A stretch of 20,000 bases of DNA from an uncultured virus (IMG/VR IMGVR_UViG_3300033074_002123) (taxonomy: Duplodnaviria > Heunggongvirae > Uroviricota > Caudoviricetes): IMG/VR virus record IMGVR_UViG_3300033074_002123, positions 110,393-130,392 of that record; one strand, given 5' to 3'. Of this stretch, positions 1 to 20,000 are shown piece after piece; position 1 is the stretch's first letter; the number at the start of each line of letters is the position of its first letter. Below the pieces are notes generated by a model, which was given only the letters and a program-made list of their open reading frames with translations, searched no databases and was not told the origin of the DNA. Both the position numbers and the translations under genes were made by a program.

Positions 1-278
1 ATAGTACCTACTATAGTATGAGCAGAACCATCCCAAGTAAAATTGGCATCTCCTTCTATAGTAGAAGCTGTTTTCCATATAGCAATTTGATTATCTACTG
101 GAGTTCCATAAATTCCTACTGTTCCAGAACCAAGTCTAGTTGCTACACCAGCATCATCAACATCATACCAACCATCAGTACGAGCTTCCAACCTTCTATA
201 ACCAGAGGTAGCAGCTCCAGCATTAGAAACCTTAAGAGCTTCTAAGCCTTTTTGAATTTTAAGATTATAAATTGACAT
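1..278 (-). CDS. Partial gene running off the window edge; probable second tail fibre / fibre-like virion protein (N-terminal 92 aa)
   Basis: Not in the ORF track; translated by hand from the ATG at 278: MSIYNLKIQKGLEALKVSNAGAATSGYRRLEARTDGWYDVDDAGVATRLGSGTVGIYGTPVDNQIAIWKTASTIEGDANFTWDGSAHTIVGT, open to the edge. GTPVDNQIAIW...IEGDANFTWDG resembles GSGEADQVAYF...LGGNNAFIYNSG in the upstream fibre. A promoter-like motif lies just upstream. Confidence 0.75.
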   Translation of the reverse strand, partial: MSIYNLKIQKGLEALKVSNAGAATSGYRRLEARTDGWYDVDDAGVATRLGSGTVGIYGTPVDNQIAIWKTASTIEGDANFTWDGSAHTIVGT

Positions 279-296
279 GATTTTAAAATTATTTTA

Positions 297-328
297 TAAA
301 GATATGAATTTTTTTTAATAAAACCAAA
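297..328 (-). promoter_or_regulatory. Bacteroidota-type primary-sigma promoter variant (TTTG-N20-TATCTTTA)
   Basis: Minus strand reads TTTG gttttattaaaaaaaattca TATCTTTA taaaa, ending 18 nt before the ATG at 278. Matches the -33/-7 consensus TTTG-N19-21-TAnnTTTG except the last base. The same architecture recurs at 16060-16090. Confidence 0.6.
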
Positions 329-359
329 CTAGAACCATTTTTTTGTGTTATCTCTTTAA

Positions 360-3300
360 CTAAACTGCTGTAAATTTACCAGCAAAATTCCAACTCCCAC
401 TTACTCTCTGTTCAATTATTAAATGACCAAATCCATCATCATATAACCTCCAACTACCATTTGTATCTTCATTCCCAATATAAAACTTCTTATCTATAGG
501 AATTTTTAAATCTTGTCTAACAGTAACTAAAGAACTTTCTACTGTAATAAGACTAGTTTTTGATAATTGAATATCAAGTTTAGTTTCAGCATTAATTATA
601 GCTTGTGTTCCAGTATGACTAAATTTAAAGTATTTAGAATTATCAATCAAATGTAATAAAGAAGTAGGTTCAATAATGTGATTACCTATACCAACATTTG
701 AATTTCTATAAATAGAAGAACCAATTAAACTCCACAAATCTGCTGGGAGATCGGAATATGTAACTTCCTTAGTAGAAGAATCATAATAAAGAACTTGTGT
801 TTGAGAAGCAGCTTTTAAAGTATGAAAATAAGGCTTAGAATATAAATTAATAGCTCCTGTTGTATCTACAGAATTTCCATATAAATTTAAACTCTCTGTA
901 GTTAAAGTTCCACCCTTTATAATTTGACCTCCTGCTCTTCCTCCCAACAAAACATATTGTAAGTGATCATCATGTTCTAAACCAGTTAACTGACTATGGT
1001 CTCCAGTAGAACCAAAACCTGCTTTAACCAAAGCACAATAATCAACATACAAATAGTGATTTGTATTTCCTGTAGCTGCATGATAAAATCTTATCTTTGC
1101 TTCACCTCCACTTGTATGTTCACTTGGGTCTGGGATAGAAATTTCTATCCATTCATAATTAGCTTGAGATTGTAAAAGCGTTATATAATCTTCCCAAATA
1201 CTATCTCCATAATCCCACATTTGAACTTTAACATCATGATTCCCAGTATAATAACATCTTAGCCATAATCTAGTAGGAGAATGAACAATGCCTGAAAATA
1301 TTAATTCAACATCAAAACCTGGAACTCCTGTTACTTCTCTTATTGTCCAAGCTACATTATCATGAACATTAGTGGTTAAATAAGTTCCTGAAGTCTGTGT
1401 CCCTTTTGTTATAACAGAACCAGTAGCTAAATAAATATATTGACTTATGGCTTCATCTACATAAGTCTTAACAGCTGAAGATGTTGGAATTCTGGTATTA
1501 TAATCTGAAAGAGTAGTTTCTATCAAACCCACAGATGCACCAGAAGCACTTAATTGTAAGTTACCATATATTCTCACTAAATCATTGTCAAATTCTCCAT
1601 AAATTAAAGGAGTAGCTGATTGAGAATTTTCAATATAAAGTTTATTACTTCCAGTTTCATTATAACCAGCAGAATAACCTAAAAAAACATTATAACTACC
1701 TAAAGTATTAAACCCAGTAAGTCCACCAATATATGTATTGTAAGAGCCTGTTTCATTCAAATTACCTGCAGCTGAACCTACTCCAACATTATAAGAACCA
1801 CTTAATGTACTTTTTAAAGCCTGATACCCAATAGCAACACCACTACTTCCTGTTGTTAAAAGACCAAAGGCTTCAAAACCTACAGCTGTAACCCCTTGAG
1901 CCTCTGTTAAGTTCTTACTTGCTAAAGCACCAACAGCAGTATTAAATCTACCTGTAGTATTTGAATTTAAAGCAAATTGTCCAACACCTACTAGAGAAGT
2001 TCCCTGTATTCCTGTTGACCCTGTTAAAGTTAAATTTCCTGCACTCTTACCTACAAAAATATTACTAGCATTCCCACTTAAATCAAAGTCATGTAAAAAA
2101 GTATTTATACCCTTATAAAAAACCCCTAAAACAGAACTTTGATTAGAAGCAACTGGCATTTTAAAATTCTGAGTTATTTCTAATTGTTCACTAGGAGTGT
2201 CTATACCAATTCCTACCCAATCACCTAAATTAGTTGGATAGAGAAAAGCAGGACCTTCTTCAGGAATAGTTCTAGTCCAATAATTATCTTCTTGTATTAT
2301 TGTTTCCCAAGATAAAACCCCTCCAGCATTTACCCTTAAAAATTTATTTTCTTCATAAAGAGAAGGCCATGTATAAGAAGAATTTCCTCCTGGGTCTTCA
2401 TCAGCTACTGCAAAAGTAACTGAACTAGTTGTACTATAAAGAGCAAGAAATCCATGAGTTCCTTCACCAACCCCTATATGTAATACTCCTGAATTATAAA
2501 TAAAAGCATTATTTCCACCAAGTACATTAGTATCTACAAAATAAGCAACCTGGTCTGCTTCTCCTGAACCTGAAATAACCCCTGAAAGATCTACTTCAAA
2601 CCAAGATAAAGTCCCACTAGCAGAAGAAATTAAAACTCCATAATCAACCTCTGGATATGCTGTTGGCCAAGAATAATCTTGAGATTCTGTAGTAGCTACT
2701 GAAGAATGAAAAGAAACCCCATAATCTGTTTCACCATCATAAAAAGTTAATAATCCTAATTCAGATTGCTCAGACTCAATATCTCCTAAAATTATACCAT
2801 GTAAATGTAAATTATCAAACTCACTATAATAAACAACATTATCTATTACATTTCCTTTTTTATATAAAACCCACTCTCCCTTAATTGAAGAAGCATTTCT
2901 AAACAAACCAGAAGTACTTATAACTTGTCCTACACCATCATAATAAGTTCCATAAATCCCTATATCAAGCAAATCAGAAACAGAATTATTTCTAGCTAAA
3001 TGAATTAAAGAATCTTCTATAGAAAGAGTTTCTGTATCAATTATAGTTTGAGTCCCCCAAACTGTTAAGTTTCCTAAAATTACTACTGTAGAAAGAGCTT
3101 CTCCTATAGTAATATTATTAGCACCAGTATTACTCCACAAATTATGAGCACCAGCTTCTTCTCCAATTATATCATTAACAACTTTTATTGAATTTGGTAA
3201 ACCAATTTGTAAAGTTTGATCATCAGCCCTAGTTTCTATTTCATCTTCAGTTCCAATTATATTTAAAGTTTGAGAGTCTAAATCTATAGAACCAGTTCCA

Positions 3301-3548
3301 CTATCACCAGCAAAATTTAAAGTAACAGCTGTTAATTCATTATAAGTAACAAACCTTCTCCACTCATTAATAGCCCCTCCATAATATCCCCAAAAACCTT
3401 CTTCTCCTAATTCACTATGATAATACATTTGTCCACCAACAGCTGTAAAAGCAGTAGGAATTGCAGAACTAGGGTGAATAACAGGATAAAGTAATCCTTT
3501 ATTTCTAAGATTTAAGGGATTAAAATATTCTAATTCAAAGCCAGGCAT
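360..3548 (-). CDS. Mosaic tail fibre / receptor-binding protein (1062 aa)
   Basis: Lies after the baseplate genes. Contains motifs I recognise from fibre proteins: FAGDSGTGSIDLDSQTL; GNLTVWGTQTIIDTETLSIEDSLI; two YxWP...GxLSW repeats; two VGIG...P motifs; 14-aa NxAVGxxA beta-roll repeats ending NKLYIENS...PLIYGEFD; PTSSAVKTYVD; DHSQLTGLEHDDHLQY; C-terminal GSWRL...QRVSGSW. Confidence 0.8.
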   Translation of the reverse strand: MPGFELEYFNPLNLRNKGLLYPVIHPSSAIPTAFTAVGGQMYYHSELGEEGFWGYYGGAINEWRRFVTYNELTAVTLNFAGDSGTGSIDLDSQTLNIIGTEDEIETRADDQTLQIGLPNSIKVVNDIIGEEAGAHNLWSNTGANNITIGEALSTVVILGNLTVWGTQTIIDTETLSIEDSLIHLARNNSVSDLLDIGIYGTYYDGVGQVISTSGLFRNASSIKGEWVLYKKGNVIDNVVYYSEFDNLHLHGIILGDIESEQSELGLLTFYDGETDYGVSFHSSVATTESQDYSWPTAYPEVDYGVLISSASGTLSWFEVDLSGVISGSGEADQVAYFVDTNVLGGNNAFIYNSGVLHIGVGEGTHGFLALYSTTSSVTFAVADEDPGGNSSYTWPSLYEENKFLRVNAGGVLSWETIIQEDNYWTRTIPEEGPAFLYPTNLGDWVGIGIDTPSEQLEITQNFKMPVASNQSSVLGVFYKGINTFLHDFDLSGNASNIFVGKSAGNLTLTGSTGIQGTSLVGVGQFALNSNTTGRFNTAVGALASKNLTEAQGVTAVGFEAFGLLTTGSSGVAIGYQALKSTLSGSYNVGVGSAAGNLNETGSYNTYIGGLTGFNTLGSYNVFLGYSAGYNETGSNKLYIENSQSATPLIYGEFDNDLVRIYGNLQLSASGASVGLIETTLSDYNTRIPTSSAVKTYVDEAISQYIYLATGSVITKGTQTSGTYLTTNVHDNVAWTIREVTGVPGFDVELIFSGIVHSPTRLWLRCYYTGNHDVKVQMWDYGDSIWEDYITLLQSQANYEWIEISIPDPSEHTSGGEAKIRFYHAATGNTNHYLYVDYCALVKAGFGSTGDHSQLTGLEHDDHLQYVLLGGRAGGQIIKGGTLTTESLNLYGNSVDTTGAINLYSKPYFHTLKAASQTQVLYYDSSTKEVTYSDLPADLWSLIGSSIYRNSNVGIGNHIIEPTSLLHLIDNSKYFKFSHTGTQAIINAETKLDIQLSKTSLITVESSLVTVRQDLKIPIDKKFYIGNEDTNGSWRLYDDGFGHLIIEQRVSGSWNFAGKFTAV

Positions 3549-3556
3549 TCTAAAAG

Positions 3557-4156
3557 CTAATTATAAAGTAAAGTTCCTACAAAATTTTCTTCTGATTCAA
3601 TTCTTACACTCCAATTATCAATATGAAGAACATACATATTTACTTCCAATCCTTTAGAATCCAAAATTGTAATAGCAGGTTTTCTGCCTAAATTGTGAGA
3701 GTAATCAAAAGGAATCCCACCTGTTAAATTTAAAGTTACAGTTTTATTTTTATCTCTTGATTTTATTCCTAAAAGAATAAACCAATATTGACCTACTTCA
3801 GCTTCAATCCCACCTGGATTGGTGGTTCTACACACTAAAATATCTGTTTCCCAACCTAATTTCCCACCAACCCCACCAGCATAACCATCATAACTTATTA
3901 TCCAATAATCGCCTGGAGAACCTACTGGGTAATCTGGATTAGTAGAAAGGTCTATATAACCTTTAAAAGTAAAATTACCACCACCAGGTACTCCACCTGA
4001 ATCAATTAAAGGTACCCATTCTTGTAAAGGAACATCCCAATAATAATGTAGATATACTCCGATATTTGTATTATACCAAAGCATAGCTGTATTAATAGGA
4101 GGCGTAGTTCCTACATGAATAGCTTTAATTAAACCAAGATTTATACTATCTGGCAT
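3557..4156 (-). CDS. Small fibre/baseplate-associated virion protein (199 aa, three short modules)
   Basis: N-terminal AIHVGTTPP...LWYNT, central FKGYIDLSTNPDYP...GDYWII...YW, and C-terminal HNLGRKPAITILDS...FVGTLLYN. I recall all three from phage fibre-associated proteins. Function not established. Confidence 0.55.
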   Translation of the reverse strand: MPDSINLGLIKAIHVGTTPPINTAMLWYNTNIGVYLHYYWDVPLQEWVPLIDSGGVPGGGNFTFKGYIDLSTNPDYPVGSPGDYWIISYDGYAGGVGGKLGWETDILVCRTTNPGGIEAEVGQYWFILLGIKSRDKNKTVTLNLTGGIPFDYSHNLGRKPAITILDSKGLEVNMYVLHIDNWSVRIESEENFVGTLLYN

Positions 4157-4159
4157 TTT

Positions 4160-4474
4160 TTAAGGTATTGTATATATTAAATAACCTTCACTATCAATAG
4201 AATAATTCTCAACTTGAGCTGAATTTTCACCTTCAATTAAATCCAACTCCCCCATAGCATTTACATTGGGTAAGATATGCTCAGGTATTTGATTTGCTGT
4301 CCCTAATCCTTCTCCTTCTAAAAATGAAACTTGATTAATCATTCCAATTTCTTCAGCTAAAAATACTTTTAATAAATCTAAATCACTAACTTTCCAATAC
4401 CAAGTATAAACCTCTATATCTAGCCAAAATATAGTAATAATTGTTAACGTTGGTATAACTACTGTCTGCCCCAT
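4160..4474 (-). CDS. Hypothetical acidic protein (104 aa), probably baseplate/fibre associated
   Basis: Separated from both neighbours by only 3 nt; directly follows baseplate J; ends YSIDSEGYLIY. No confident family. Confidence 0.55.
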   Translation of the reverse strand: MGQTVVIPTLTIITIFWLDIEVYTWYWKVSDLDLLKVFLAEEIGMINQVSFLEGEGLGTANQIPEHILPNVNAMGELDLIEGENSAQVENYSIDSEGYLIYTIP

Positions 4475-4477
4475 ATA

Positions 4478-5680
4478 TTAAATGTCTGATAAAACCGTAG
4501 CCCAATATGAAAAATCGGGGTTATTAGGATAATATAAAGGTTGTAAAGTACCTGAAACATTAGAAATAATATTACCATCTAAATCCATCATTATAAAACC
4601 TCTCATTAAGGGTAGCTTATATTTTTCAATTGCTACATCTGAATTTGGGGTAAAATAAGTATCAGGGACATACCTAACTCCTCTAGTATTTTTAACTAAT
4701 TGTAACAAATTATCCCATTCTACTTTACCCTTACTTTCACTCCAATATCTATAATCAAAATATTTTGAAAACTTAACTTGAATATCTTTTCTAACATCAT
4801 CAGCACTATAACCTTGCCATAAATCACAACGAAAACTTACATCAATAAGTTGATAAACAACATTTTTAATTTGAATACCATAATTAATTCCACCAACTGA
4901 TTGAAGTTCCACTAAAGAAAAATAAGCTTGTCCATATTCAAGTAAATCATCTCTTTCTTGTTGAGTTAAATCAACTCCATTTTGAGTAGCTACAGCTAAA
5001 ATAACCTCTCCATTCTCATTGAAGCCTTGATGATAAACTTTAAGAATGTTAGTATTAATTTTCATGAAAACTTGTTCTAACATAGCTAAAGTCCCTTTAG
5101 CTAAAATATTAGCACCTTCCTTTATTCTTTTCCTAAAATAATCATCTTGCTCAATATCTCTTCCTCCACTTGCCTTATATTCATTAATAACATACCTGTG
5201 ACCTACAGGAACAGGAGAAATTTTAGTTATAGTCAAAGCATCAACATTAGCTATATCACCTAATTGATCACTTCTTAATTTAACATAGCCCCAACCATGA
5301 GAACCAAGTGTAAGGTTTTGTTGTAATGAAAAGGTAATACCACTAGCTCCAGAAAAAATATGAGTACCAGCAACATAAGCCGTTCCTGGATTACCTACTA
5401 CCCTAGCATAAACATAACTACTAGCTGATTCAAACCTTTGAGCAACTCCAAAGATTTCAGCTGAATTATCTAAATAATCACCAAAAGCAGCATCAGGAAA
5501 AAGATGACCTTCTAAAATAGCTATTTCTTTTAAGACCTTTTGTCCTACTTTAGCTACTCCATAACTAATCCCACTTAAAACAGATTCATCTGAAACTTTT
5601 GTAACTTTATCTGTTTTGCTTAATAAAACTTCAACAAAAATTTGTTTTAGTTCTTCAATTGTAGAAACTTGGGTTATCAT
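4478..5680 (-). CDS. Baseplate wedge protein, baseplate J / T4 gp6-like (400 aa)
   Basis: Hallmark motifs FPDAAFGDYLD...FGVAQR, GDIANVDALTITKI and GGRDIEQDDYFRKRI; follows the gp25-like gene with an ATGA overlap. Confidence 0.9.
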   Translation of the reverse strand: MITQVSTIEELKQIFVEVLLSKTDKVTKVSDESVLSGISYGVAKVGQKVLKEIAILEGHLFPDAAFGDYLDNSAEIFGVAQRFESASSYVYARVVGNPGTAYVAGTHIFSGASGITFSLQQNLTLGSHGWGYVKLRSDQLGDIANVDALTITKISPVPVGHRYVINEYKASGGRDIEQDDYFRKRIKEGANILAKGTLAMLEQVFMKINTNILKVYHQGFNENGEVILAVATQNGVDLTQQERDDLLEYGQAYFSLVELQSVGGINYGIQIKNVVYQLIDVSFRCDLWQGYSADDVRKDIQVKFSKYFDYRYWSESKGKVEWDNLLQLVKNTRGVRYVPDTYFTPNSDVAIEKYKLPLMRGFIMMDLDGNIISNVSGTLQPLYYPNNPDFSYWATVLSDI

Positions 5681-6621
5681 TTGTTAAAATATATTGTTTT
5701 GTTTAATAATAAATCACCATAAACTGTTCTAATTTCAGCTTCTATAAAAACAGCATCTTGATAAAAACCTACATTAGTAATAGAAAAAGAAGAAAAAGTA
5801 TCATCTTTAGAAAAGAGAGAATAATATTGTCTAAAAATAACAGGAAAAGCAATGGCTTTTAAGTTAGAGCCAACTATAATACTTGAAGAAATTCCATCAT
5901 CAGGGAATTCTGGAACATCTCCTTTATTCAAATTACAAAGAATATCACAAGCTTGTTGAATAGTCTCTTTATAAGTAAGAACTTTTAAGTCATCATCCAC
6001 AAAAGTAATTGTTCTATCTAAATCTTTCCCATACATTTTTTCACCCTCTAAATTATCAACAACACTTTCTAAATAATTAATGGGATAGGTTTTATCAAAA
6101 ACAATTTTTAATAAAACTCCTCCTTTATTAGAATATTCTTCTTCAGTTAAATCATTTTTAACAGCTAAATCTACCCAATTATTGTCAAAATCAGAATTTT
6201 GTAAAGTTAATCTAGAAATTGTTTCTAAAGTTTCATTTTGTTTTAACCCATATTCAGATTGGATTCCTTCATTATAATTAAGGTTAGTTATAGGAGACCT
6301 CAAGAATTTAGAACTCTTTTTTATTATTTCTAAACTCTTGATAATATCCTCAATCTTATCCAATAAATTCCAATCAGCTATATTGATAAAAGACTCCCTG
6401 TTTAAATAAAAAATTTCTTCAACTTTTTTAGCTTCAGTTAATAAAATATCTAATTTTGAAAAAGCAACAGAATCAGCTACTCTAAAGTTACCAGCATAAT
6501 AATCAATTATTTTTCTTGAATCAACTTCAATAAAAGCAACATAATAATCTATCAAAGAATAGATATCATAGCCTGTTATTTTAACAAAATCAGATATAGT
6601 AGTTTCTTTAAAAGGTAACAT
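5677..6621 (-). CDS. Baseplate wedge / sheath initiator: helical N-domain + LysM-like domain + gp25/GPW-like domain (314 aa)
   Basis: LysM-like YGLKQNETLETISR...WVDLAVKNDL and gp25-like GKDLD...DDDLKVL...IQQA...KGDVPEFPDDGI. Start moved from 6687 to the ATG at 6621 (MLPFKE), which cuts the overlap with the upstream gene from 80 nt to 14 nt. Confidence 0.75.
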   Translation of the reverse strand: MLPFKETTISDFVKITGYDIYSLIDYYVAFIEVDSRKIIDYYAGNFRVADSVAFSKLDILLTEAKKVEEIFYLNRESFINIADWNLLDKIEDIIKSLEIIKKSSKFLRSPITNLNYNEGIQSEYGLKQNETLETISRLTLQNSDFDNNWVDLAVKNDLTEEEYSNKGGVLLKIVFDKTYPINYLESVVDNLEGEKMYGKDLDRTITFVDDDLKVLTYKETIQQACDILCNLNKGDVPEFPDDGISSSIIVGSNLKAIAFPVIFRQYYSLFSKDDTFSSFSITNVGFYQDAVFIEAEIRTVYGDLLLNKTIYFNK

Positions 6622-7414
6622 AGCCAAAAGGATTGCCAATTTCGTTTGGAGAAGGAATTTTATTTGCTGGGAATAGATTATAATCACTATTAGGATATTT
6701 AACAGCTAAAGCTACTTCAGAAGCTAAAAGATCTATTACCTTAGTCATGTTATCAAACATCAAAGTTTTCCTTAAAGAATTTCTCTTGTGACCTTTTTCA
6801 TAAATAGGAGAAACAGCAGATAAAGACAAAGAATAAGTCCAAATCATATTTAAGTCCTTAGATTGAGATAACTTCAAATCAGTTAATTCTACTATCCAAC
6901 TATGCCCTAAAGAAGGATTATAAAAATAAGTTCTATAAGGGTAACCCTCATGACTTAAACCACTTGATTTTTCATATAGGTGTTCAAATAATTTAATAGC
7001 CCCATATCCTGTTTTAACTTTTGGGTCAAAATATTTGTGTTTTAAATGAAAGGGGAACTTTAAATGAAGTAATCCACCTTCTACTTCAGTTTGTCCTATT
7101 AACATCTTAAATTTCTTACCAAAATTACCACTTAAAACATACTGTTTAGGAATAAAACTATCTGTTTTTAAACTAGTAATTCCACCAGCAGACTTTTTAA
7201 TATTAGTAATTTTAGAAGAAGTATATTGAATTTGTTCTGGCATTACAGGAAATACAAATAAATCAGTTGTAATTGTATCTCCATTATCTTTTATTTTAGC
7301 TAATTCAATAGAACAAATATAATATTCAAAATCATTAGGAAATAGCCAATGAAGATAAGATTTTCCTATTGATTGAACTAATTGTAAATATCTACTTCTA
7401 ACTAAATCATCCAT
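6608..7414 (-). CDS. Putative tail tube initiator / baseplate-tube junction protein (268 aa)
   Basis: FVFPVMPEQIQY...TNIKKSAGG...YVLSGNFG...WTYSLSL fits tube-fold baseplate proteins; sits between spike and wedge as in SPO1/K-like modules. Confidence 0.6.
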   Translation of the reverse strand: MDDLVRSRYLQLVQSIGKSYLHWLFPNDFEYYICSIELAKIKDNGDTITTDLFVFPVMPEQIQYTSSKITNIKKSAGGITSLKTDSFIPKQYVLSGNFGKKFKMLIGQTEVEGGLLHLKFPFHLKHKYFDPKVKTGYGAIKLFEHLYEKSSGLSHEGYPYRTYFYNPSLGHSWIVELTDLKLSQSKDLNMIWTYSLSLSAVSPIYEKGHKRNSLRKTLMFDNMTKVIDLLASEVALAVKYPNSDYNLFPANKIPSPNEIGNPFGYVTF

Positions 7415-7659
7415 TATACAAGTCCTCCTATAATTTGAGCAATACTAGTAGCTGTACCTGGGAAACCACCAGCTATAACAGTAGTATTAGTAGGATTAAT
7501 AGCACCTGGTTGAAGAACAACTTCAGCTGAATGAATAGCATCAGTTATAATCTTTGCTAAATCAGAAGCAAATAATTGAATAGCTGCTTCTGGGTCTTCT
7601 AACCCATTTCCTTTAACAGAATTTACAATTTGTTGTTGAATATATGCTTGATTAACCAT
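7414..7659 (-). CDS. Small protein after the spike; candidate spike tip (81 aa)
   Basis: Two amphipathic helices (FASDLAKIITDAIHSAEV) followed by a Gly/Thr/Pro-rich beta segment; 1 nt downstream of the spike gene; TAATG coupling to the next gene. Confidence 0.5.
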   Translation of the reverse strand: MVNQAYIQQQIVNSVKGNGLEDPEAAIQLFASDLAKIITDAIHSAEVVLQPGAINPTNTTVIAGGFPGTATSIAQIIGGLV

Positions 7660-7660
7660 A

Positions 7661-10943: not shown

Positions 10944-10955
10944 ATAAAATACTCA

Positions 10956-12773: not shown

Positions 12774-12778
12774 AATTA

Positions 12779-13120
12779 TTACTTAGATTGAGGAAATTTG
12801 ATTTTATCAAATTGTGACAAATCTAAATTATCATATAAATCATCCAAAGCTTCTTGTGTTATTGTAGGCTTACTTTTCTTTAACCACTTACCAGTTTCTT
12901 TGTAATTATCTCTATCCTCTTTCTTAACAATAGAAGATTCAATATAATAATTAACAAGTTTCTCTTCATCATACTCAAACTTAATATCAATCAAACACAT
13001 TTCCCTATGTTGGGGAGAATTAAAGGGAATATTATGCTTTTTCCTCCACCAATAGTCAAAGGGATATCTGTTGTTCCAATATACAATGAAGTTTCTGAGT
13101 GTATCTTCATTCCAGTTCAT
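12779..13120 (-). CDS. Second tail assembly chaperone-position protein (113 aa)
   Basis: Between chaperone and tape measure, TAATG-coupled to the chaperone. Aromatic-rich WNNRYPFDYWWRKKHNIPFNSPQHR motif. Confidence 0.55.
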   Translation of the reverse strand: MNWNEDTLRNFIVYWNNRYPFDYWWRKKHNIPFNSPQHREMCLIDIKFEYDEEKLVNYYIESSIVKKEDRDNYKETGKWLKKSKPTITQEALDDLYDNLDLSQFDKIKFPQSK

Positions 13121-13512
13121 TACTCTTTTTCTTCCTTAGGTATAGGCAATAACTCAAGGTCTTTTTGCAAAATACTAAACCATTCAGAATACCATGGAAA
13201 AAAGACTTTTTTATAAGCTAACACCATTTCTTTCATCTCAAATGGAGTTAAATTCATAATATTGTCTATTTTCAAATGAGTTTTCAATTCAGGAATTAAA
13301 ACTGTAAAAACAGCAATAGCATCAATAAAATCTAAAGCCAAATTACCACTACCACTATTGGTGCTGACCATTTGTCTATAAATCCCATTTGAGAGAGTAA
13401 TTTTCATTGTCTCAATGTCAATTGTTTGACCTACAGTAGGAAATTTGACTTCAAAAGTTTGACCTTGAAAAGCAAGTTTACAAACTTTAGATAATTCTTT
13501 CTTTTCTTCCAT
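13120..13512 (-). CDS. Tail assembly chaperone (130 aa)
   Basis: Immediately downstream of the tube gene. FEVKFPTVGQTIDIE followed by helices ending Y...WYSEW fits myophage chaperones. Confidence 0.65.
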   Translation of the reverse strand: MEEKKELSKVCKLAFQGQTFEVKFPTVGQTIDIETMKITLSNGIYRQMVSTNSGSGNLALDFIDAIAVFTVLIPELKTHLKIDNIMNLTPFEMKEMVLAYKKVFFPWYSEWFSILQKDLELLPIPKEEKE

Positions 13513-13539
13513 TTTAATTAATTTTTAAGTTATTTTTAC

Positions 13540-13575
13540 AAAAAAAAAGAACACTTAAAGTAGAAGTGTTCTTTT
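13540..13575 (-). terminator. Intrinsic terminator after the sheath-tube genes
   Basis: Perfect inverted repeat GAACACTT-N7-AAGTGTTC (13549-13571), extendable by A/T pairs, followed on the minus strand by 9 Ts (A run 13540-13548). Confidence 0.85.
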
Positions 13576-13646
13576 CTTATCTATATTACACAATAATATT
13601 TGATATTACCCTTTTCGTCGTTTCACTTCTCTTTAAATCTAAACCA

Positions 13647-14129
13647 TTAAGTTGGGAAAATAACGGGGTAAAGATATCGAAACGATTGATTTTTTCCACT
13701 AACTTGGCCTTCATTAATATTGAAATTATCTGTATCAAGAAATAAACCATTAATTACAGCATAAACATCTTCTGCTGAAGTAATAAGACCAGTTTCAGGA
13801 TCTACTTCTCCTACAACCTTTTTATACAAAACAACTTGTACCCCTACATCATTTAATAAAACATTATCTACAAATGACTTAGTATCTTGAACATCCCTTC
13901 TAATGGCTCCAGGTATAGTAGACTTAGTATAATCAATATTATAAAAATCAGCCGTTAATGTGCCAGCCCAACTAATAGCAGGAACTTCTTGTGGTGTTAA
14001 TTCTCCAAGACCCCTAACTTCAGCTCGATTAAAGTTTTCATTAACAGTAATACCTCTCATTTTACCAATAGTTACCCCATTAGCTTTAACTATGGCTAAA
14101 GCGGCATGTAATACTTGATTTGATGGCAT
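13647..14129 (-). CDS. Tail tube protein (160 aa)
   Basis: Directly after the sheath. IGKMRGITVNE...EVRGLGELTPQEVP...GTLT...NQSFRYL is the SPO1/K-type tube pattern. Confidence 0.9.
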   Translation of the reverse strand: MPSNQVLHAALAIVKANGVTIGKMRGITVNENFNRAEVRGLGELTPQEVPAISWAGTLTADFYNIDYTKSTIPGAIRRDVQDTKSFVDNVLLNDVGVQVVLYKKVVGEVDPETGLITSAEDVYAVINGLFLDTDNFNINEGQVSGKNQSFRYLYPVIFPT

Positions 14130-14163
14130 AATATGTAAATTTTAATGATTCAACAAAAAATAA

Positions 14164-15807
14164 TTATGAATTAGGGTCAATCATAAAACCTGTAAAGAAT
14201 AATTTGTTTACAGGGAAATTAGGAACAAATTCATAAGTTACCTTATAAGCATCTTGGTCTACAGTTACTGTAATATTCCTATAAGAAAGAATTAAATCAT
14301 CCTTAGTATCTGTAGCTGTTCTACTATTAAGATAACCAGCTAACCAATTTTTAACATCTTGTTTAGAAAGGGTATTTCTATTAACTCCTTCAGATTGACC
14401 TAAAAGTTGTTTCTTTGCATTATAAACAATTTCTTTATTTAATTGATTAGCAATTCTCATAATTTGGATTTCATGAGAACTACCATCCTGATTAACTAAA
14501 TAATCATTATTTTGAAGGGAATTAATAGCTTGATTGATAATAAATTTGTTAAATTCAACATCCCATTTAGTGTGAAGAACACCATATTTAAGGGCTTGTT
14601 CTCTCTCAAATTTGGTTAAGGAATGAACTTCAGCATCTATATCAATTCCTTTAAAAGTACCAGGAACTTGAGGTTGTAAACCAGCAATTCTACCTAAAAC
14701 AGCAGCTGCTTTAAAAATAGAACCATAAGTCTTATAAGTCCCATTCTTTAAAACTTTCTTAAAACCACCATGAACAATAGTAACTGAAGTATCATTCCAA
14801 TATTGAGCATCATCAATAGATCCTAAACTGACTCCATTAGCAAATTTAGTATCATCTTCTCCCCCTCCAATAAATAAAAATTCACCATATTTAGCTTCCG
14901 TTTTTAAATGAGTAAGTATTTTAGCTAAATCAGAATCCTGAGCATCTTCTCCCCACTTATCAGCTAAAATAAAACTATAATCTAAATTAGTAATGACATC
15001 TAAAACATCATCTAAAGCATTATAAGTTTCAGTACCACCACTAGCTAAAGTATTTCCTGAATAGGTAGTTAAATCAGCATCTGTAATATCTCCTGTTCCA
15101 TCTTTAGTATAAGTCTTAATAGAAAACATTGATAAAAATTGTCCATTGGTTGACATCCAAAGATGTAATTCTTCAATAGTAGCAAATTCTTCAGAAGAAA
15201 TAAGTAAATCTGGTTCTGTATCATCTGCTTGAACAAAATCCCAAGGCAAACCATCAGTACTATCTGTACCCTTGAAAGTACCTCTATAAAAATCAAGAAT
15301 ATATGTATTAGCTGTTACACCTGCTCTCATCTTAAAAGCATAACCAAAAGTTAATACATCATCATCATTCTCATCACCATTTCCACACAAACCTTCATCA
15401 ACAACCTGAAGAACAATATGGCCACCATTAGCTCCTCCTCCTGTTGGATTAAAAGCTAATTCAGCAGGAACTGTAGTAGCAGCCTTAATAAAATAAATAT
15501 TGCTTACTCCTGGTACTGTAAAACCTTCAGGCTGAAATAGCCATTTAGCCAAAGCCCAAAAAATACCTCCTCCAAGAGCACTTCTAAACTCATCAATATT
15601 GTTATAAACTTGAATAGCATTAATACCATTCTTAAGAGTACCTTTAACACCAGGCCCAGAACCAAATCCTGCTCCTGCTCCTGTATCAATAATCAACACA
15701 TTACCATAAGATAAATTCAAAGGTGGATTATTAATACCTGATTTAATTTGAGAATAGACTCCAGGTTCAGTAACTGTTTTATTCCCAAAAACAAATTTTG
15801 TAGCCAT
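14164..15807 (-). CDS. Contractile tail sheath protein (547 aa)
   Basis: N-terminal PGVYSQI, central LASGGTE, C-terminal AAAVLGRIAGL...GTFK...GVL...EIQIMRIANQL...PNFPVNKLF; typical size and position before the tube. Confidence 0.95.
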   Translation of the reverse strand: MATKFVFGNKTVTEPGVYSQIKSGINNPPLNLSYGNVLIIDTGAGAGFGSGPGVKGTLKNGINAIQVYNNIDEFRSALGGGIFWALAKWLFQPEGFTVPGVSNIYFIKAATTVPAELAFNPTGGGANGGHIVLQVVDEGLCGNGDENDDDVLTFGYAFKMRAGVTANTYILDFYRGTFKGTDSTDGLPWDFVQADDTEPDLLISSEEFATIEELHLWMSTNGQFLSMFSIKTYTKDGTGDITDADLTTYSGNTLASGGTETYNALDDVLDVITNLDYSFILADKWGEDAQDSDLAKILTHLKTEAKYGEFLFIGGGEDDTKFANGVSLGSIDDAQYWNDTSVTIVHGGFKKVLKNGTYKTYGSIFKAAAVLGRIAGLQPQVPGTFKGIDIDAEVHSLTKFEREQALKYGVLHTKWDVEFNKFIINQAINSLQNNDYLVNQDGSSHEIQIMRIANQLNKEIVYNAKKQLLGQSEGVNRNTLSKQDVKNWLAGYLNSRTATDTKDDLILSYRNITVTVDQDAYKVTYEFVPNFPVNKLFFTGFMIDPNS

Positions 15808-15828
15808 ATGTTATATTATTATATATTC

Positions 15829-16044
15829 TTATTTAATAATTTTATCTTCAGTAAAAGCTTTCTCCCAATCAGATTGAGTTTTCTTAATATTTCCATACTT
15901 TTTGGTAACATGGAGAGATAAGCGAGAAGAAAGTTTCTTAAGAGAAATAAAAGTAAAACCAGTAATTAATTCCTCTTCCTTTGGCTGATTTTTTTTACCT
16001 TTTTTAGTGATATCTAAACCACTATCAACAGTTTCTTCAGACAT
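15829..16044 (-). CDS. Small basic hypothetical protein preceding the sheath (71 aa)
   Basis: Lys-rich ORF with an A-rich leader and an upstream promoter motif. I recall a small gene of similar size before the sheath in K/SPO1-like phages. Confidence 0.65.
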   Translation of the reverse strand: MSEETVDSGLDITKKGKKNQPKEEELITGFTFISLKKLSSRLSLHVTKKYGNIKKTQSDWEKAFTEDKIIK

Positions 16045-16059
16045 TTTTCTAATTTTTTA

Positions 16060-16090
16060 TAAATTTAATAAACTTTTCTTAAAAAACAAA
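16060..16090 (-). promoter_or_regulatory. Bacteroidota-type promoter variant (TTTG-N19-TAAATTTA) for the 71-aa/sheath/tube unit
   Basis: Minus strand reads TTTG ttttttaagaaaagtttat TAAATTTA taaaa, ending 15 nt before the ATG at 16044. Same architecture as 297-328. Confidence 0.6.
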
Positions 16091-16121
16091 ACTTACAGTT
16101 TTTTATTTAACTAAATAAGTT

Positions 16122-16781
16122 TTATTGTACAGCTTTACCAGAAAAGATAATATCTTGCATCATTTGATCACTAAAAAATCTTGGAACTGAAACATCATAA
16201 TTAGAATGAAGAGTTAAAGCTCTAATAAAAATATGTTTAGGAATAAGGTCAGAGTTTATTTGTAAATCTTGCCCTCCCAATTTTGGATTTTGAAGACCAA
16301 CCAATTGAACACTATCAAAAATAGAAATAAGCAAAGATCTCATAGTATTATACATTAATAAAACTTCTAAAGTATTTTCAGAAGTAAAAATAATACTATA
16401 TTGAGCTTCAAAATTTCTATTATAAACTGGAGTAAATCTAAGATTATCATCATCCCAAAGTGGTGATTTAAAACCTTCATCTACTCCAATTCCATCAAAA
16501 GCTGCACTTTCTCCTGGTAAAGTAATATGAATAGTAGGTAAATCAGCTCTAGACACATCAAAAAATTGTCTCACAGCAACCTTTCTAGGATGGTCAGTTC
16601 TCCTTAAAAATAATTCCTTACCTTGGTCATAATAATCAAATTTTCCAAACTTATTACCATGAAGCAAATTATAGAGTAAAGATTTAGTTTCATCAGCTAA
16701 ATTAGCTTCAAAATCTTTGCTAATGTGAGTGACTAAACCCGTAATGAGATTAAATAAGACAATTTCAGGAATAATTATCAT
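16122..16781 (-). CDS. Putative tail terminator / tail completion protein (219 aa)
   Basis: Last large gene before the sheath. LPTIHITLPGES followed by alternating beta/alpha elements (YSIIFTSEN, FIRALTL) fits the terminator fold. Mainly a synteny call. Confidence 0.6.
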   Translation of the reverse strand: MIIIPEIVLFNLITGLVTHISKDFEANLADETKSLLYNLLHGNKFGKFDYYDQGKELFLRRTDHPRKVAVRQFFDVSRADLPTIHITLPGESAAFDGIGVDEGFKSPLWDDDNLRFTPVYNRNFEAQYSIIFTSENTLEVLLMYNTMRSLLISIFDSVQLVGLQNPKLGGQDLQINSDLIPKHIFIRALTLHSNYDVSVPRFFSDQMMQDIIFSGKAVQ

Positions 16782-16793
16782 AATAAATAAATT

Positions 16794-17561
16794 TTAAAAC
16801 CCCAATTCATGTAAAAATCTATCAGTACTCTTTTGAACTTCAAAAGGAACATTAGTTATAGTTAAAGCCTTTTGAGATAAATTACGAGCAGTAATACCAG
16901 TATGAATAAAAGCATCAGGGTCAGATAAATCACTAACTCTTCTAAAAGAAAAATAAGTTCCTTGGTTTAAAGTTGGATTGATATTAGGTAATCTAACTAT
17001 ACCAGCTTCAATAGGAGATTTATGTTGATAAGCTTCAAAAGTTTTACTTTTTGAAACAACCATAGCTCTTGTTCTATTTATTCTTAAATCTGGGGGGATA
17101 TCAGAAATTTTTAACCCTTTACCTTGAGGTTTAGATTTGACTATCTTATAAATTTCATCAGGCATTACACCAGAAAAAACTTCACTCTCTCCCAAAGCTC
17201 CAGGGGTAGCCCACCTAAAAGGAATTGTTAAATACCACCCTCCATTAACTTTCATTTTAGCTTTTTTGCTATGACTAAAACCTTCTTTCATATCAAAAGG
17301 ACTAACTCCTTGTTCCACCATATTAGGAACAACTCCAATTAGTTTAACATAACCAGTTCTTGGTCCAGCCTCACCTACTTTTAAGCTATTTATATATTGC
17401 CATCTAGTGGCATGTAAAGTTTGTCTAGCAAGACTTTCCCAATTGTAGGCTACTCTAGCTGTTAATTTTTTAATAACAAAGTCTATTAAATCATTAACAA
17501 TCTTCCTATCAAGATTGAATTCATCAGCTACTTGAGAAAAATCTATAATAATAGGTTCCAT
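16794..17561 (-). CDS. Neck/tail completion protein, HK97 gp10-like position (255 aa)
   Basis: Basic protein with LHATRWQYINSL...PNMVEQG..PFDMK...GGWYLTIPFR...FRRVSD...FIHTG; lies between the neck and terminator genes. Confidence 0.55.
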   Translation of the reverse strand: MEPIIIDFSQVADEFNLDRKIVNDLIDFVIKKLTARVAYNWESLARQTLHATRWQYINSLKVGEAGPRTGYVKLIGVVPNMVEQGVSPFDMKEGFSHSKKAKMKVNGGWYLTIPFRWATPGALGESEVFSGVMPDEIYKIVKSKPQGKGLKISDIPPDLRINRTRAMVVSKSKTFEAYQHKSPIEAGIVRLPNINPTLNQGTYFSFRRVSDLSDPDAFIHTGITARNLSQKALTITNVPFEVQKSTDRFLHELGF

Positions 17562-18418
17562 TATAAAACTGTAGAATTATCAAACATATAATTTCTATCA
17601 AAATTTTGCCTATCTAAAACATAATGAGCTCTTCTAGCTATAGCATGAATAGGCATTTGATGAATTTCTTCTCTACCTGAAACGACATTGGTTATGTTAG
17701 TAACCATAACTTCTCTAGGCAAATCTAAAATATGAAATTGTAAAGAGTGCAAATATCTGATAGAAAAAGTTAAATCAGAAATATTAAGGTATTCATTACT
17801 AAAAATAATCTTATTTTTTTCTACAAGAGAATAATTAGCTAAAGGGACTTTCTCTAATATAGAGTTATCTGCTACATATCTATATAAGTAAGAAATTTCT
17901 TTAACAACTCCATAAACTAAAAAAGCAAATAATTGTCCATCATAAAGTTTAGGATGAACAATTTCTGTATAAATAGAATTAGTATCCTTTAATGTAATTC
18001 TATCCATATAAGAAAGAGCATCAACATCTCTTACTGTAATAGAAACAGTGCCTAAATTTTGTTCTGTCCAAGCTCTATATTCATTAGATAAATTAATAGA
18101 ATGAATAATAGCTCTAGTAGTAACTGGGTTGATGAAAAACCAACCTGTTCCACCACAATTTTGACAAGAAGAATTATGCCCCCCTCCCTCTGATTTACAA
18201 GGGCATTTTAAAGCTTTCTCAATAACAACATCATAACCTTTATTCCATATAGCAGCTTCAAATTCTGCTTTCCTAAAATCTACTTTAGGATAGGTAGTAA
18301 GGATAAGAGGAGCAGGACTAAGTATTTTATTAACTTCATATTTAGACTCAGCTTGTTGTAAATAACCTGTAACAGTAGCTAACCCACTAATTGTCCCTTC
18401 AATATTAACTATACTCAT
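17561..18418 (-). CDS. Neck / head-closure (stopper) protein with a Cys4 Zn-binding motif (285 aa)
   Basis: EKALKCPC-x10-CQNCGGTGW (about 18140-18205) plus LSYMDRITL. I recall this CPC...CxxCxGxG signature from the neck protein of SPO1/K-like phages at this position. Confidence 0.7.
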   Translation of the reverse strand: MSIVNIEGTISGLATVTGYLQQAESKYEVNKILSPAPLILTTYPKVDFRKAEFEAAIWNKGYDVVIEKALKCPCKSEGGGHNSSCQNCGGTGWFFINPVTTRAIIHSINLSNEYRAWTEQNLGTVSITVRDVDALSYMDRITLKDTNSIYTEIVHPKLYDGQLFAFLVYGVVKEISYLYRYVADNSILEKVPLANYSLVEKNKIIFSNEYLNISDLTFSIRYLHSLQFHILDLPREVMVTNITNVVSGREEIHQMPIHAIARRAHYVLDRQNFDRNYMFDNSTVL

Positions 18419-18441
18419 AATCTATCTTTAGTTAAAAATTG

Positions 18442-18483
18442 AAAAAAGTCGGCATGTAAACCAAAAAGGAAACACACCGACTC
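18442..18483 (-). terminator. Intrinsic terminator after the 150-aa gene
   Basis: Minus-strand RNA AGUCGGUGUGU-N14-ACAUGCCGACU forms an 11-bp stem with two G-U pairs and runs into a U6 tract (A run 18442-18447). The G-U pairs form only on the minus strand. Confidence 0.75.
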
Positions 18484-18514
18484 AAAAATAAACCCAAAAC
18501 CCAAAGGCTATATT

Positions 18515-18967
18515 TTAATCTTCTTTAACCTGTAAAGCACCAGGAGCAAATTCAGGTGTATCTCCATTATTTATTTCTAATTCAGTTAATAATTGCCCAA
18601 TATATAAAACTTTACCTTCACCTGATAAATCAGTACCTACTGAAAAAGTAGTAACTCTTATATTTTCCTCAACTGTACATTGGCTAAAAATAACTTTTTC
18701 TATGTTAGAAGCACAATTTCCTACAACACTCCATCCCACATCACCATTTCTAACTACAGATATTCGACTATATCCAACATAATTAACTTCCTCTGTATTC
18801 TGTTTAACTTCTGCATTCTCACTAATGTCTGTTGTATGAAGAGCAATATAAAGAGTACCCTCAATAGCTGAACTTTTTAAACCTATACTATCCCCAACAC
18901 CTGCTAAAGCAATATTGTTGAAAATAAGTAATAAAATTTCATGTTTAAATAAAATTCCTTTAGGCAT
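18515..18967 (-). CDS. Beta-rich virion protein of a widespread ~130-150 aa family (often annotated Gp80-like / tail fibre protein)
   Basis: Motifs LLLIFNN...LYIALHT.D...EVNYVGYSRISV...W...N...VIF...FSVGT...GKVLYIG.L...GDTPEFAPGALQVKED match this family as I recall it. Confidence 0.7.
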   Translation of the reverse strand: MPKGILFKHEILLLIFNNIALAGVGDSIGLKSSAIEGTLYIALHTTDISENAEVKQNTEEVNYVGYSRISVVRNGDVGWSVVGNCASNIEKVIFSQCTVEENIRVTTFSVGTDLSGEGKVLYIGQLLTELEINNGDTPEFAPGALQVKED

Positions 18968-18975
18968 CAGTTTAA

Positions 18976-19761
18976 TTATAAACTAGTTACTGTAAATCCT
19001 TTGTAAGTATTATAAAGTCTTGGTAAAGTCTTCTGTAAATCCTCTAAATAACCTTGTATTCTCCCTCCATAAGCAGAAGTGGTACCACTTTTAGTAGTTC
19101 CAACAGATTGGCTAAGACCATCTATTCCTAAACTTTGTGAAGAAATACCTGGTCCTAGAATTAAATCCCCTGCAATTCTAAAAATATTTATAGCTGCAAG
19201 TTTTCCAATAAAATTCAACAAATCAAATGGCACTTTCTCAAATCCAGTGCAATAAGTAATTGACCAATAATTAGGTATAGTAGTTTGACCCAAAAAACCT
19301 AAATGAGGAGTAACTCCAGAATAAATAACAGAATTTACTGTACCTTGTAAAGTATGTTGAGGAACAATATAAATATGTCTATAATAAAAATCATCAGATG
19401 ATTTCCTAACAGACAACCATTCAGGTGGATATTGAATTTGTCTAACTTGATTTATAAATCCCAACAATTCAAAAGCTTTATTAGCTTGATAACTAACTCT
19501 AATATAACCCCAAGCTTTAAAATCATCCATAAAGAAGTCTCTATCTTCTTTAATGATTTGTTTTTGACACTTGAGATTAAGGTATTTTTCTACTTCATCT
19601 TGAGCTGCTTGAATAGTAGTAGAAATAATATCATTAGAAATGGACCCTCCATGCTTATCATAGATATCTATACCAAAAAAATACAGTTCTAACAATTCTT
19701 CTGGAGATATTATTAGACCTGAATTTTTCTTATAAGATATATTGAAAGTAAGAGCACCCAT
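18976..19761 (-). CDS. Head-tail adaptor / head completion protein (261 aa)
   Basis: IQAAQDEVEKYL, ITYCTGFEKVPFDL and GISSQSLGIDGLSQS...SAYGGRI are adaptor-type motifs; first large gene of the neck block. Confidence 0.75.
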   Translation of the reverse strand: MGALTFNISYKKNSGLIISPEELLELYFFGIDIYDKHGGSISNDIISTTIQAAQDEVEKYLNLKCQKQIIKEDRDFFMDDFKAWGYIRVSYQANKAFELLGFINQVRQIQYPPEWLSVRKSSDDFYYRHIYIVPQHTLQGTVNSVIYSGVTPHLGFLGQTTIPNYWSITYCTGFEKVPFDLLNFIGKLAAINIFRIAGDLILGPGISSQSLGIDGLSQSVGTTKSGTTSAYGGRIQGYLEDLQKTLPRLYNTYKGFTVTSL

Positions 19762-20000
19762 TATTGAGATTTCTGAATCAAATATTTAACTAATTCAACT
19801 TTGGTTAAACCTTTCCACTCTTCTACAGGTAAATTAGATGTATTAGCCAACTCAATCAGATCTTCTTTAGTCATTTGAGTTAGTTTCTTAGCTAAATCAA
19901 TATTAATCTTCTGTTGAGCTTCAGAAACTACTTTTTCTTTGCCTCCTTCTTGAGGTGGGATTGCTGGTTCTTTGCCTCCTTCTTGAGGTGGGATTGCTGG
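19761..20000 (-). CDS. Partial gene (C-terminal 79 aa) with Pro/Gly/Glu repeats and a HeH/Rho-N-like terminal domain
   Basis: Not in the ORF track; hand translation: PAIPPQEGGKEPAIPPQEGGKEKVVSEAQQKINIDLAKKLTQMTKEDLIELANTSNLPVEEWKGLTKVELVKYLIQKSQ*. Its stop overlaps the adaptor ATG (TAATG). Confidence 0.75.
   Translation of the reverse strand, partial: PAIPPQEGGKEPAIPPQEGGKEKVVSEAQQKINIDLAKKLTQMTKEDLIELANTSNLPVEEWKGLTKVELVKYLIQKSQ
19935..20000. repeat. Perfect 33-bp tandem repeat, at least 2 copies, reaching the window edge
   Basis: ttctttgcctccttcttgaggtgggattgctgg at 19935-19967 and 19968-20000; encodes PAIPPQEGGKE on the minus strand. Confidence 0.95.

Follow-up and report, generated by a model that had tools for sequence, protein, structure and literature searches.

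Neck, tail and baseplate genes related to those of SPO1 and 812 in an uncultured 130-kb phage of a probable Bacteroidota host

The window analyzed here covers the final 20,000 nucleotides of one contig of 130,392 bp (29.8% guanine plus cytosine, GC), listed in IMG/VR as virus record IMGVR_UViG_3300033074_002123, with terminal repeats and a completeness rating of 100%. A 66-bp overlap of the contig ends (an assembly overlap) closes the sequence into a circle, which places the capsid gene (C1:488-1975) directly upstream of the first gene of the window. Almost every gene of the genome lies on the minus strand. There is strong reason to read the window as the operon of late structural genes, from neck and tail to the core of the baseplate and the first fibres, of a lytic 130-kb myophage with a Bacteroidota host, within a clade that comprises the proposed Gratiaviridae, the DAC16 group of Bacteroides phages (cluster gamma) and Chryseobacterium phage MA9V-3, and with virion proteins related to those of SPO1 and 812.

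All features of the window are on the minus strand and are given here from the capsid side onward. The 3′ end of a gene of ~194 amino acids (aa) with a 33-bp tandem repeat (19761..20000) crosses the contig end; it follows the major capsid gene, at the position of SPO1 gp6.2, and matches phrog_2724 weakly. The head–tail adaptor (18976..19761), equivalent to SPO1 gp6.3 and 812 gp98, matches phrog_772 (expect value, E, 2e-33) and, by profile, SPO1 gp6.3 (E 2e-55). Between adaptor and neck stands a lineage-specific insertion, the gene of a Gp80-like accessory virion protein of 150 aa (18515..18967; PF23140), present in L014 alone among 84 related loci; a hairpin and U-run resembling a terminator come next (18440..18490; by folding only, with no shuffle control). 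The neck or stopper protein with its CPC..CxxC motif (17561..18418; SPO1 gp6.4 equivalent; phrog_1004, E 2e-24, and a profile match) precedes a 255-aa neck/tail-completion protein 1 (16794..17561; SPO1 gp7.1 equivalent; phrog_16819, E 4e-36, also phrog_1127, and a profile match) and tail-completion/terminator protein 2 (16122..16781; profile match to its equivalent SPO1 gp7.2, E 1e-12). A promoter-like TTTG-N19-TAnnTTTA motif (16060..16090) lies ahead of a 71-aa gene (15829..16044), labelled by its SPO1 gp8.1 position only, and of the contractile tail sheath gene (14164..15807; AlphaFold2 model with a predicted local distance difference test score, pLDDT, of 89; best Foldseek match the phage 812 sheath, E 8e-23; profile match). 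The tail tube gene (13647..14129; phrog_3776/985; profile match) carries a second terminator-like hairpin with a U-run on its 3′ side (13540..13580; by folding only).

Tail assembly chaperone 1 (13120..13512) is named from its position and a weak profile match to the YungSlug chaperone (E 0.006), and the next gene (12779..13120) holds the place of a second chaperone; labelled by position only, it is kept in the clade and has no Herelleviridae match. The 605-aa tape measure protein (10956..12773) matches SPO1 gp11.2 by profile (E 1e-10), with no Pfam or PHROG match and no lysin domain detected. The 829-aa baseplate hub (8454..10943) matches SPO1 gp12.1 by profile (E 4e-17) and phrog_1015 weakly (E 1e-4) in its hub part only, with no CHAP or peptidase domain detected. 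The central spike, 269 aa with an oligonucleotide/oligosaccharide-binding (OB) fold and a beta region of P2 gpV/VgrG-like form (7661..8470; AlphaFold2 pLDDT 81.5; Foldseek E 2e-5 to 1e-4), is followed by an 81-aa gene (7414..7659) that matches unnamed viral clusters only and whose product is possibly spike-associated. Next come the tail tube initiator (6608..7414; SPO1 gp13.1 equivalent; profile match, E 2e-8; PF23980 weak, below cut-off) and a LysM/gp25-like sheath initiator (5677..6606; ESM Atlas top score 0.90, to sheath-initiator/LysM/gp25 clusters). The longest frame of the latter, 336 aa, opens at GTG 6687; the alternative start ATG 6606 is preferred because orthologues measure ~308 aa. 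The baseplate wedge protein (Baseplate_J; 4478..5680; PF04865, E 4e-14; phrog_6) precedes a 104-aa gene with no family match (4160..4474) and a 199-aa gene (3557..4156; weak unnamed PHROGs) whose product is probably fibre-associated. A 1062-aa tail fibre/spike-like protein (360..3548; phrog_6002/18186/4636) is partly paralogous to two fibres downstream, the first of which, of 1009 aa, has a promoter-like TTTG-N20-TAnnTTTA motif ahead of it (297..328; motif scan) and its 5′ end at the window border (1..278; DUF2793, phrog_7049). The fibre genes (1062, 1009 and 1759 aa; contig C1:95486-113940) have repeated segments in common and stand between baseplate J and a gene of 550 aa; in MA9V-3 the homologue of this gene comes immediately after baseplate J. 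An earlier note on this DNA had listed the genes from adaptor to baseplate J: every open reading frame (ORF) that it named is present, in the order given and on the minus strand, and its list passed over the 150-aa and 81-aa genes.

Outside the window, the genome encodes head and packaging proteins (capsid, phrog_752; protease, phrog_1028; portal; terminase), replication and repair proteins (DnaE, DnaG, DnaB, RecA, SbcCD and an SNF2 helicase), ribonucleotide reductase, thymidylate synthase, a CHAP/NlpC protein and a weak Rz-like spanin match. No integrase appeared among the library matches of the genome, and a domain search found no Sigma70_r2 domain.

To assess kinship of the module with Herelleviridae, IMG/VR relatives supplied sequence profiles that were compared with 902 ORFs taken from ten reference loci. 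Eleven of the 14 families tested matched the Herelleviridae gene at the equivalent position (SPO1 gp6.3, 6.4, 7.1, 7.2, 9.1, 10.1, 11.2, 12.1, 13.1 and 14.2, and, with a weak match, the chaperone of YungSlug); no Herelleviridae profile match came from the 269-aa gene, the 336-aa gene or the second chaperone. Okubovirus Adastra has the same order of PHROG families, from capsid, adaptor, neck and 255-aa gene to tube, hub and wedge. In the Foldseek search the sheath model placed 812 ahead of phiCD508, P1, Mu and T4; a profile of the sheath found nothing among PDB sequences with the limit set at E 1, and the fold search alone placed the sheath. The spike model matches VgrG, P2 gpV and the R2 pyocin spike with low template modelling (TM) scores. 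Sheath and spike owe their labels to predicted structure; as modelled, the spike folds like the membrane-piercing P2 gpV. A tblastn search with the sheath returned 16 records, with MA9V-3 best (42.6%), then a gut contig (39%), six Bacteroides phages (28-29%) and eight Bacillus phages (21-22%). Capsid identity follows a gradient from the DAC group (51%) and MA9V-3 (43%) to SPO1-like phages (36-39%) and Twort/Bastille types (24-28%), and portal identities show the same pattern. Taken together, these comparisons establish an SPO1-like ancestry for the head, neck and tail proteins: the families held in common, in the same order, with Spounavirinae of the Herelleviridae (SPO1, Adastra, CP-51, SP-10, YungSlug) and with 812 comprise capsid, protease, portal, adaptor, neck and completion proteins, sheath, tube, tape measure, hub, tube initiator and wedge.

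The Herelle-related tail machine of the earlier note is thus borne out by the profile matches, the Adastra gene order and the nearest sheath fold. A T4-, P2- or Mu-like sheath, which that note had set against its own proposal, was rejected: in Foldseek such sheaths come after those of 812 and phiCD508, and none is among the 16 tblastn records. They were left out of the trees because sequences of 10-13% identity align unreliably. Two of its statements went too far. It took the gene order to characterize phages of Bacillota; Morganella phage Mecenats66 and Bordetella phage PHB04 (Phabquatrovirus) show the Herelle-like order as well, so it is not Bacillota-specific. These two phages, with diderm hosts, have the same capsid-to-tube order as the window, but lie on a separate long branch of the capsid and sheath trees, with capsids 26-27% identical. 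The word "adapted" moreover implied a direction; the trees are unrooted, and no direction of transfer follows because roots were not inferred.

Expression signals were scored genome-wide on 144 ATG-led ORFs of >=60 aa. Anti-Shine–Dalgarno (anti-SD) pairing at -6.5 kcal/mol or better precedes 6 of the 144 starts, a smaller share than among 1000 non-start ATGs (77); SD-led starts number 1/40 in MA9V-3, 1/40 in DAC16 and 35/36 in the Herelleviridae control Adastra. The claim that no AGGAG-type SD precedes the starts therefore holds for the genome at large, and the strong SD use elsewhere that the earlier note had set against itself did not appear. Within the window the claim fails for one gene: an AGGAGG within the preceding ORF stands 9 nt ahead of the gene that starts at 7414, and a weaker TAAGGA lies ahead of the one that starts at 13120. 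The leaders have 18% GC and are genome-wide enriched in A at -3 (85/144), -12 (0.63) and -13 (0.69), and A at -3 exceeds the local leader A content (0.465; p 0.0017). A-3, A-6, A-12 and A-13 are start determinants in Flavobacterium johnsoniae (PMC6847099). Within the window A occupies -3 at 15 of 21 starts, or at the 14 counted earlier if the sheath-initiator gene begins at ATG 6606.

Both intergenic copies of the TTTG-N19/20-TAnnTTTA motif reported earlier were found again, ending 15 and 18 nt before a start (16060-16090 and 297-328, respectively). The window holds six TTTG-N19-21-TAnnTTTA matches, all on the coding strand, where 1.66 are expected (3 of 200 shuffles reach six), and in the genome as a whole the coding strand carries 26, where 30 shuffles give 7.7 +/- 1.9, and the other strand 6. 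Ten of the 26 lie <=100 nt from a start, a zone that makes up 12.8% of positions, and the spacer length peaks at 20. The motif thus has the TTTG box, the 19-21-nt spacer, the TAnnTTT core and the placement upstream of genes, and its pre-sheath copy, ending in A, is kept at the same place in L014 and MA9V-3. Across 80 IMG/VR loci, the G-ending form is biased towards the coding strand (62 vs 28) and the A-ending form is not (32 vs 45); the A-ending -7 box is common to this genome's relatives L014 and MA9V-3, with the G form in most relatives.

Protein similarity points to the same host phylum as the leaders. All 21 organism-named RecA matches among the 120 listed are from Bacteroidota, and the first 14 DnaE matches are Bacteroidota phages, headed by MA9V-3, the Cellulophaga phiST group, Tenacibaculum phage Larrie and the DAC group. 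The host is very probably a member of Bacteroidota, as the earlier note had proposed. A different SD-poor lineage of low GC content, in which leaders and promoter motif would reflect mere A/T richness, is a very improbable host: the 29.8% GC genome, the 18% GC leaders, the non-canonical promoter variant and some in-clade contigs in Saccharibacteria or Bacilli bins would suit it, yet the excess of A at -3 over local composition, the spacer peak and the clustering of motifs near starts are set against it, as are the agreement of RecA with DnaE and the fact that all isolated or CRISPR-assigned relatives infect Bacteroidota. Genome-bin labels were discarded as host evidence: in-clade contigs in bins are short or whole-phage, all four are SD-less whatever the label, and those labelled otherwise than Bacteroidota are probably mis-binned. 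Related capsids outside the clade come from Desulfobacterota and other bins and belong to SD-using contigs. Among the loci with SPO1-like capsids outside both Herelleviridae and this clade are L204 (a 2.6-Mb contig that looks integrated), L205, L202, L203, L172 and L173, from Desulfosarcina, Desulfobacterales, Gemmatimonadetes and Saccharibacteria bins and Proteobacteria phages.

Relatives were gathered by alignment, as scans for the sheath locus with a single sequence found none in viral or genome contigs. Sheath-encoding stretches located in IMG/VR by the alignment number 408, 80 of which were retrieved, and sheath homologues form 332 clusters among 8000 scored candidates. The module genes found are colinear in 84 of 84 loci tested, many of them truncated. 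L014 is the only close relative found (capsid 92-93%, sheath 76%), and the nearest isolates are MA9V-3 and the Bacteroides phages DAC16/19/20/22/23/SJC03, whose records annotate all structural genes as hypothetical. MA9V-3 (PMC13120357) and the cluster-gamma phages (bioRxiv 10.1101/2020.03.04.977157) are myoviruses by transmission electron microscopy; the latter were described as a novel clade, and MA9V-3 was left unclassified by its authors. A subset of the sheath homologues (P0006-P0009, L020, L025, L029 and others) is ~110 aa longer (655-670 aa), which implies an inserted domain, and in MT835500 (L010:31341-39431) there is a fusion of baseplate J with carboxypeptidase-regulatory-like repeats in a 2696-aa chain.

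The proposed "Gratiaviridae" are contractile-tail phages of Bacteroidota (Benler et al. 2021, PMC8008677), with a gene set of DnaG, a DnaE near that of phiST, SbcCD, RecA, superfamily 2 and 1 (SF2/SF1) helicases, capsid, protease, portal, baseplate and sheath, and the published spacers that match their genomes come from Bacteroidetes (PMC8008677). This genome has DnaG, a DnaE near phiST, capsid, protease, portal, baseplate and contractile sheath; SbcC, SbcD, RecA, the SNF2 helicase and DnaB are present as well, and library scans detected no SF1 helicase. Because the family description fitted, Gratiaviridae genomes were tagged through published protospacers. The OJPY01000041.1 protospacer occurs at the same coordinate in one IMG/VR contig and in 10 contigs previously found by the sheath search. 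Records tagged for I8946 have homologues of the capsid (5/5, 41-42%), sheath (3/5) and terminase (2/5), and those tagged for I8938 of the capsid (4/5, 55%), sheath (4/5) and terminase (5/5), each tag resting on one shared protospacer and the missing homologues reflecting incomplete records. Three of the four genera were sampled in this way; for I8931 no protospacer occurred in 4/4 genomes.

Trees were computed under LG+G4, with no mixture model; each capsid or sheath tree took in 18-20 of the 80 loci from IMG/VR. In the capsid tree (35 rows), this genome, DAC16, MA9V-3, Gratiaviridae and the IMG/VR relatives occupy one side of a branch with support 100/99, and 12 sampled Herelleviridae fall on the separate side of a branch with 97/95. 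The sheath tree (34 rows) likewise separates the Bacteroidota clade (100/100), with a warning of long branches meeting at DAC16. Once I8938 was added, this genome and DAC16 grouped with it in the capsid trees (85/97; 91/97), apart from I8953 and I8946, so that this genome stands bracketed by named genera. In the terminase tree (20 rows), it falls into one group with the three genera, with support of 89/96 against two long outgroups, at a basal polytomy. The lineage is therefore not an undescribed one, as the earlier note had it, since the module is colinear in MA9V-3, in DAC16 and the cluster-gamma phages and in three Gratiaviridae genera; the genome is a new, probably genus-level member of the known but unratified Gratiaviridae–DAC–MA9V-3 clade.

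A separate, undescribed family of Bacteroidota myophages, merely sister to Gratiaviridae, is an unlikely alternative. Only one close relative was found, identity to the named Gratiaviridae is 35-55%, and the genome measures 130 kb where 17 of 18 Gratiaviridae references have 97-113 kb; the group is absent from NCBI taxonomy, where DAC16 is unclassified, and spans two gene-sharing clusters (VC 494/701), and the terminase tree gives no clear placement. Against this, named genera bracket the genome on two capsid trees, and the replication and structural gene sets fit the published description. Gratiaviridae resemble it in the colinear module and in capsid (41-55%), sheath (36-40%) and terminase (35-45%) identity, but differ in that identity is lower than within genera and in the A-ending promoter variant and the deazaguanine and polyamine gene cluster of this genome, in which no DPS/Mn-catalase or HipA-like kinase was detected (no Pfam match among 169 proteins scanned). 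HipA-like kinase is an accessory gene present in 5 of 18 Gratiaviridae references (PMC8008677), and a Pfam scan of 28 proteins of relatives for HipA or glycosyltransferase was uninformative. MA9V-3 (PV245944) is alike in gene order, sheath (43%), portal (47%), baseplate J (47%), DnaE (37%), SD-less leaders and the A-ending motif before the small pre-sheath gene, and 37 ORFs of this genome have a match in it; unlike this genome, it has 103 kb and a terminase of a different phrog_38 lineage with no match to the one here. DAC16/19/20/22/23 and SJC03, also myoviruses, are alike in capsid (51%), adaptor (45%), terminase (40%), gene order, SD-less leaders and DnaE, but have 167-179 kb, a sheath only 29% identical and the canonical G-ending promoter motif.

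Herelleviridae infect Bacillota, have genomes of ~125-170 kb and long direct terminal repeats of virion DNA, and membership is judged by placement inside the family on marker trees. A true member, for example a divergent one of Spounavirinae, that had moved to a Bacteroidota host would account for a genome of 130,392 bp, within that range, for the same gene order and for a capsid and portal nearer SPO1-like phages than Twort/Bastille types. This origin is nevertheless hardly credible, and membership was rejected on terminase, trees and polymerase. The 97/95 capsid branch keeps the sampled Herelleviridae apart; the terminase belongs to phrog_38, whereas those of SPO1 and 812 belong to phrog_675 with no BLAST similarity, and none of its 89 matches is a Bacillus or Staphylococcus phage. 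DnaE occurs in 19/19 near-complete relatives and is absent in Adastra, and SPO1 has a sigma gene where none was detected here. Herelleviridae thus differ from this clade in host phylum, SD use, terminase family, polymerase, sigma factor and the wall-hydrolase domains of the hub, which Adastra and 812 carry and which scans with hidden Markov models (HMMs) did not find in the hub or tape measure here. This terminase type is present in 15 of 19 near-complete relatives (48 records searched) and lacking in MA9V-3 (whose L012:15884-17395 is the other phrog_38 terminase) and in G001, G006, G012 and G014. Terminase-only taxonomy is weakened because the terminase is exchanged inside the clade. The terminases of gut Gratiaviridae (L110-L123, L143-L146) give two-piece matches in 700-717-aa frames, consistent with an insertion, e.g., an intein.

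Several observations weigh against parts of this interpretation. The host assignment of this genome rests on its own signals and similarities and not on a CRISPR or isolate match, and three of the four in-clade contigs from genome bins carry non-Bacteroidota labels (Bacilli and two Saccharibacteria). A at -6, one of the F. johnsoniae determinants, is not enriched (0.44), nor is the canonical G-ending TAnnTTTG form (5 vs 3.8), the terminal G of the Bacteroidota -7 box being reported as nearly invariant (PMC6847099). Support for the branch joining this genome to I8938 stays short of the starred threshold, and in the terminase tree the genome sits in a basal polytomy. The DPS/catalase genes of Gratiaviridae were not found; ferritin occurs in 3 of 48 relative records and is absent from I8953-like ones, so DPS/ferritin is not defining for Gratiaviridae and was set aside as an uninformative marker. 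Finally, the missing lytic domain of hub and tape measure amounts to a lack of HMM matches, without a structure model for the hub, and the SPO1 spike gene is also short (351 aa), so that a short spike alone is no marker of a diderm host.

In the proposed mechanism, transcription of the operon from A-ending promoters of the -33/-7 type would be carried out by the host's RNA polymerase, either as such or after redirection by an unrecognized phage factor, and host ribosomes would initiate at A-rich, SD-less leaders. The products would assemble into a neck and contractile tail of the 812/SPO1 type, whose fibres may bind a surface receptor while wedge and sheath initiator trigger contraction. The outer membrane would then be punctured by the short gpV-like spike on a hub lacking a wall hydrolase. 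The phrog_38 terminase, which is of another family than the Herelleviridae enzyme, would package the DNA, and a DnaE-type polymerase common to other Bacteroidota phages would replicate it.

We somewhat favour a broader view, in which Gratiaviridae, the cluster-gamma isolates, MA9V-3 and several hundred environmental contigs would form one family- or order-level clade, with a virion sister to that of SPO1/812 that lacks wall hydrolases, and with a terminase, a polymerase and a set of expression signals that have been swapped; together with PHB04-like and Desulfobacterota-associated phages it would make up a so far unrecognized Herelle-like virion lineage across at least four phyla. Gratiaviridae, the DAC phages and MA9V-3 as one clade with an SPO1-like virion appear unreported in the literature searched, which did not extend to subscription journals or proposals to the international virus-taxonomy committee (ICTV), and the search found no paper joining Herelleviridae, Bacteroidota and SPO1-like phages. 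Gratiaviridae and Herelleviridae are named together in surveys and reviews. The main text of PMC8008677 contains no "Herelle", "SPO1" or "DAC16"; the text of the cluster-gamma preprint (bioRxiv 10.1101/2020.03.04.977157), supplements aside, has no "Herelle" and no Gratiaviridae link; and the MA9V-3 paper mentions Herelleviridae a single time, where an Smc tree shows them as distinct (PMC13120357). The clade itself is already known, and the part worth reporting is the link across groups to an SPO1-like virion. With it, genes annotated as "hypothetical" in all isolate records receive names, three phage groups that had been described separately are joined, and cultured phages (MA9V-3, DAC20) become available for a family known from metagenomes only. 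As the baseplate mechanism of phage 812 has been solved for the Gram-positive wall (PMC13433997), a related tail on a Gram-negative host offers a natural test of envelope adaptations; if the link is true, one tail machine could be compared between monoderm and diderm hosts with existing isolates.

Beyond the structural genes, the A-ending promoter variant and a DNA-modification cluster are side leads. At contig C1:75135-87557 (L005:7135-19557), QueD, QueE, FolE, QueC and an ArcS-like DUF5591 protein are interleaved with polyamine genes (agmatinase, deoxyhypusine/homospermidine synthase and arginine dihydrolase-like, agmatine-deiminase-like and pyruvoyl decarboxylase-like proteins), plus MazG; library scans of the cluster named no DpdA. 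Its gene content suggests a polyamine-bearing deazaguanine modification of DNA. A single tRNA-Leu(TAA) gene lies at C1:31569-31654. Eleven genes at C1:7840-23671 and 33678-36994 carry a short PxGTxKxW-like motif and have no family matches bar one weak ATPase-like match; the motif is possibly a targeting signal for head-internal proteins, and similar-looking genes occur near the MA9V-3 head module.

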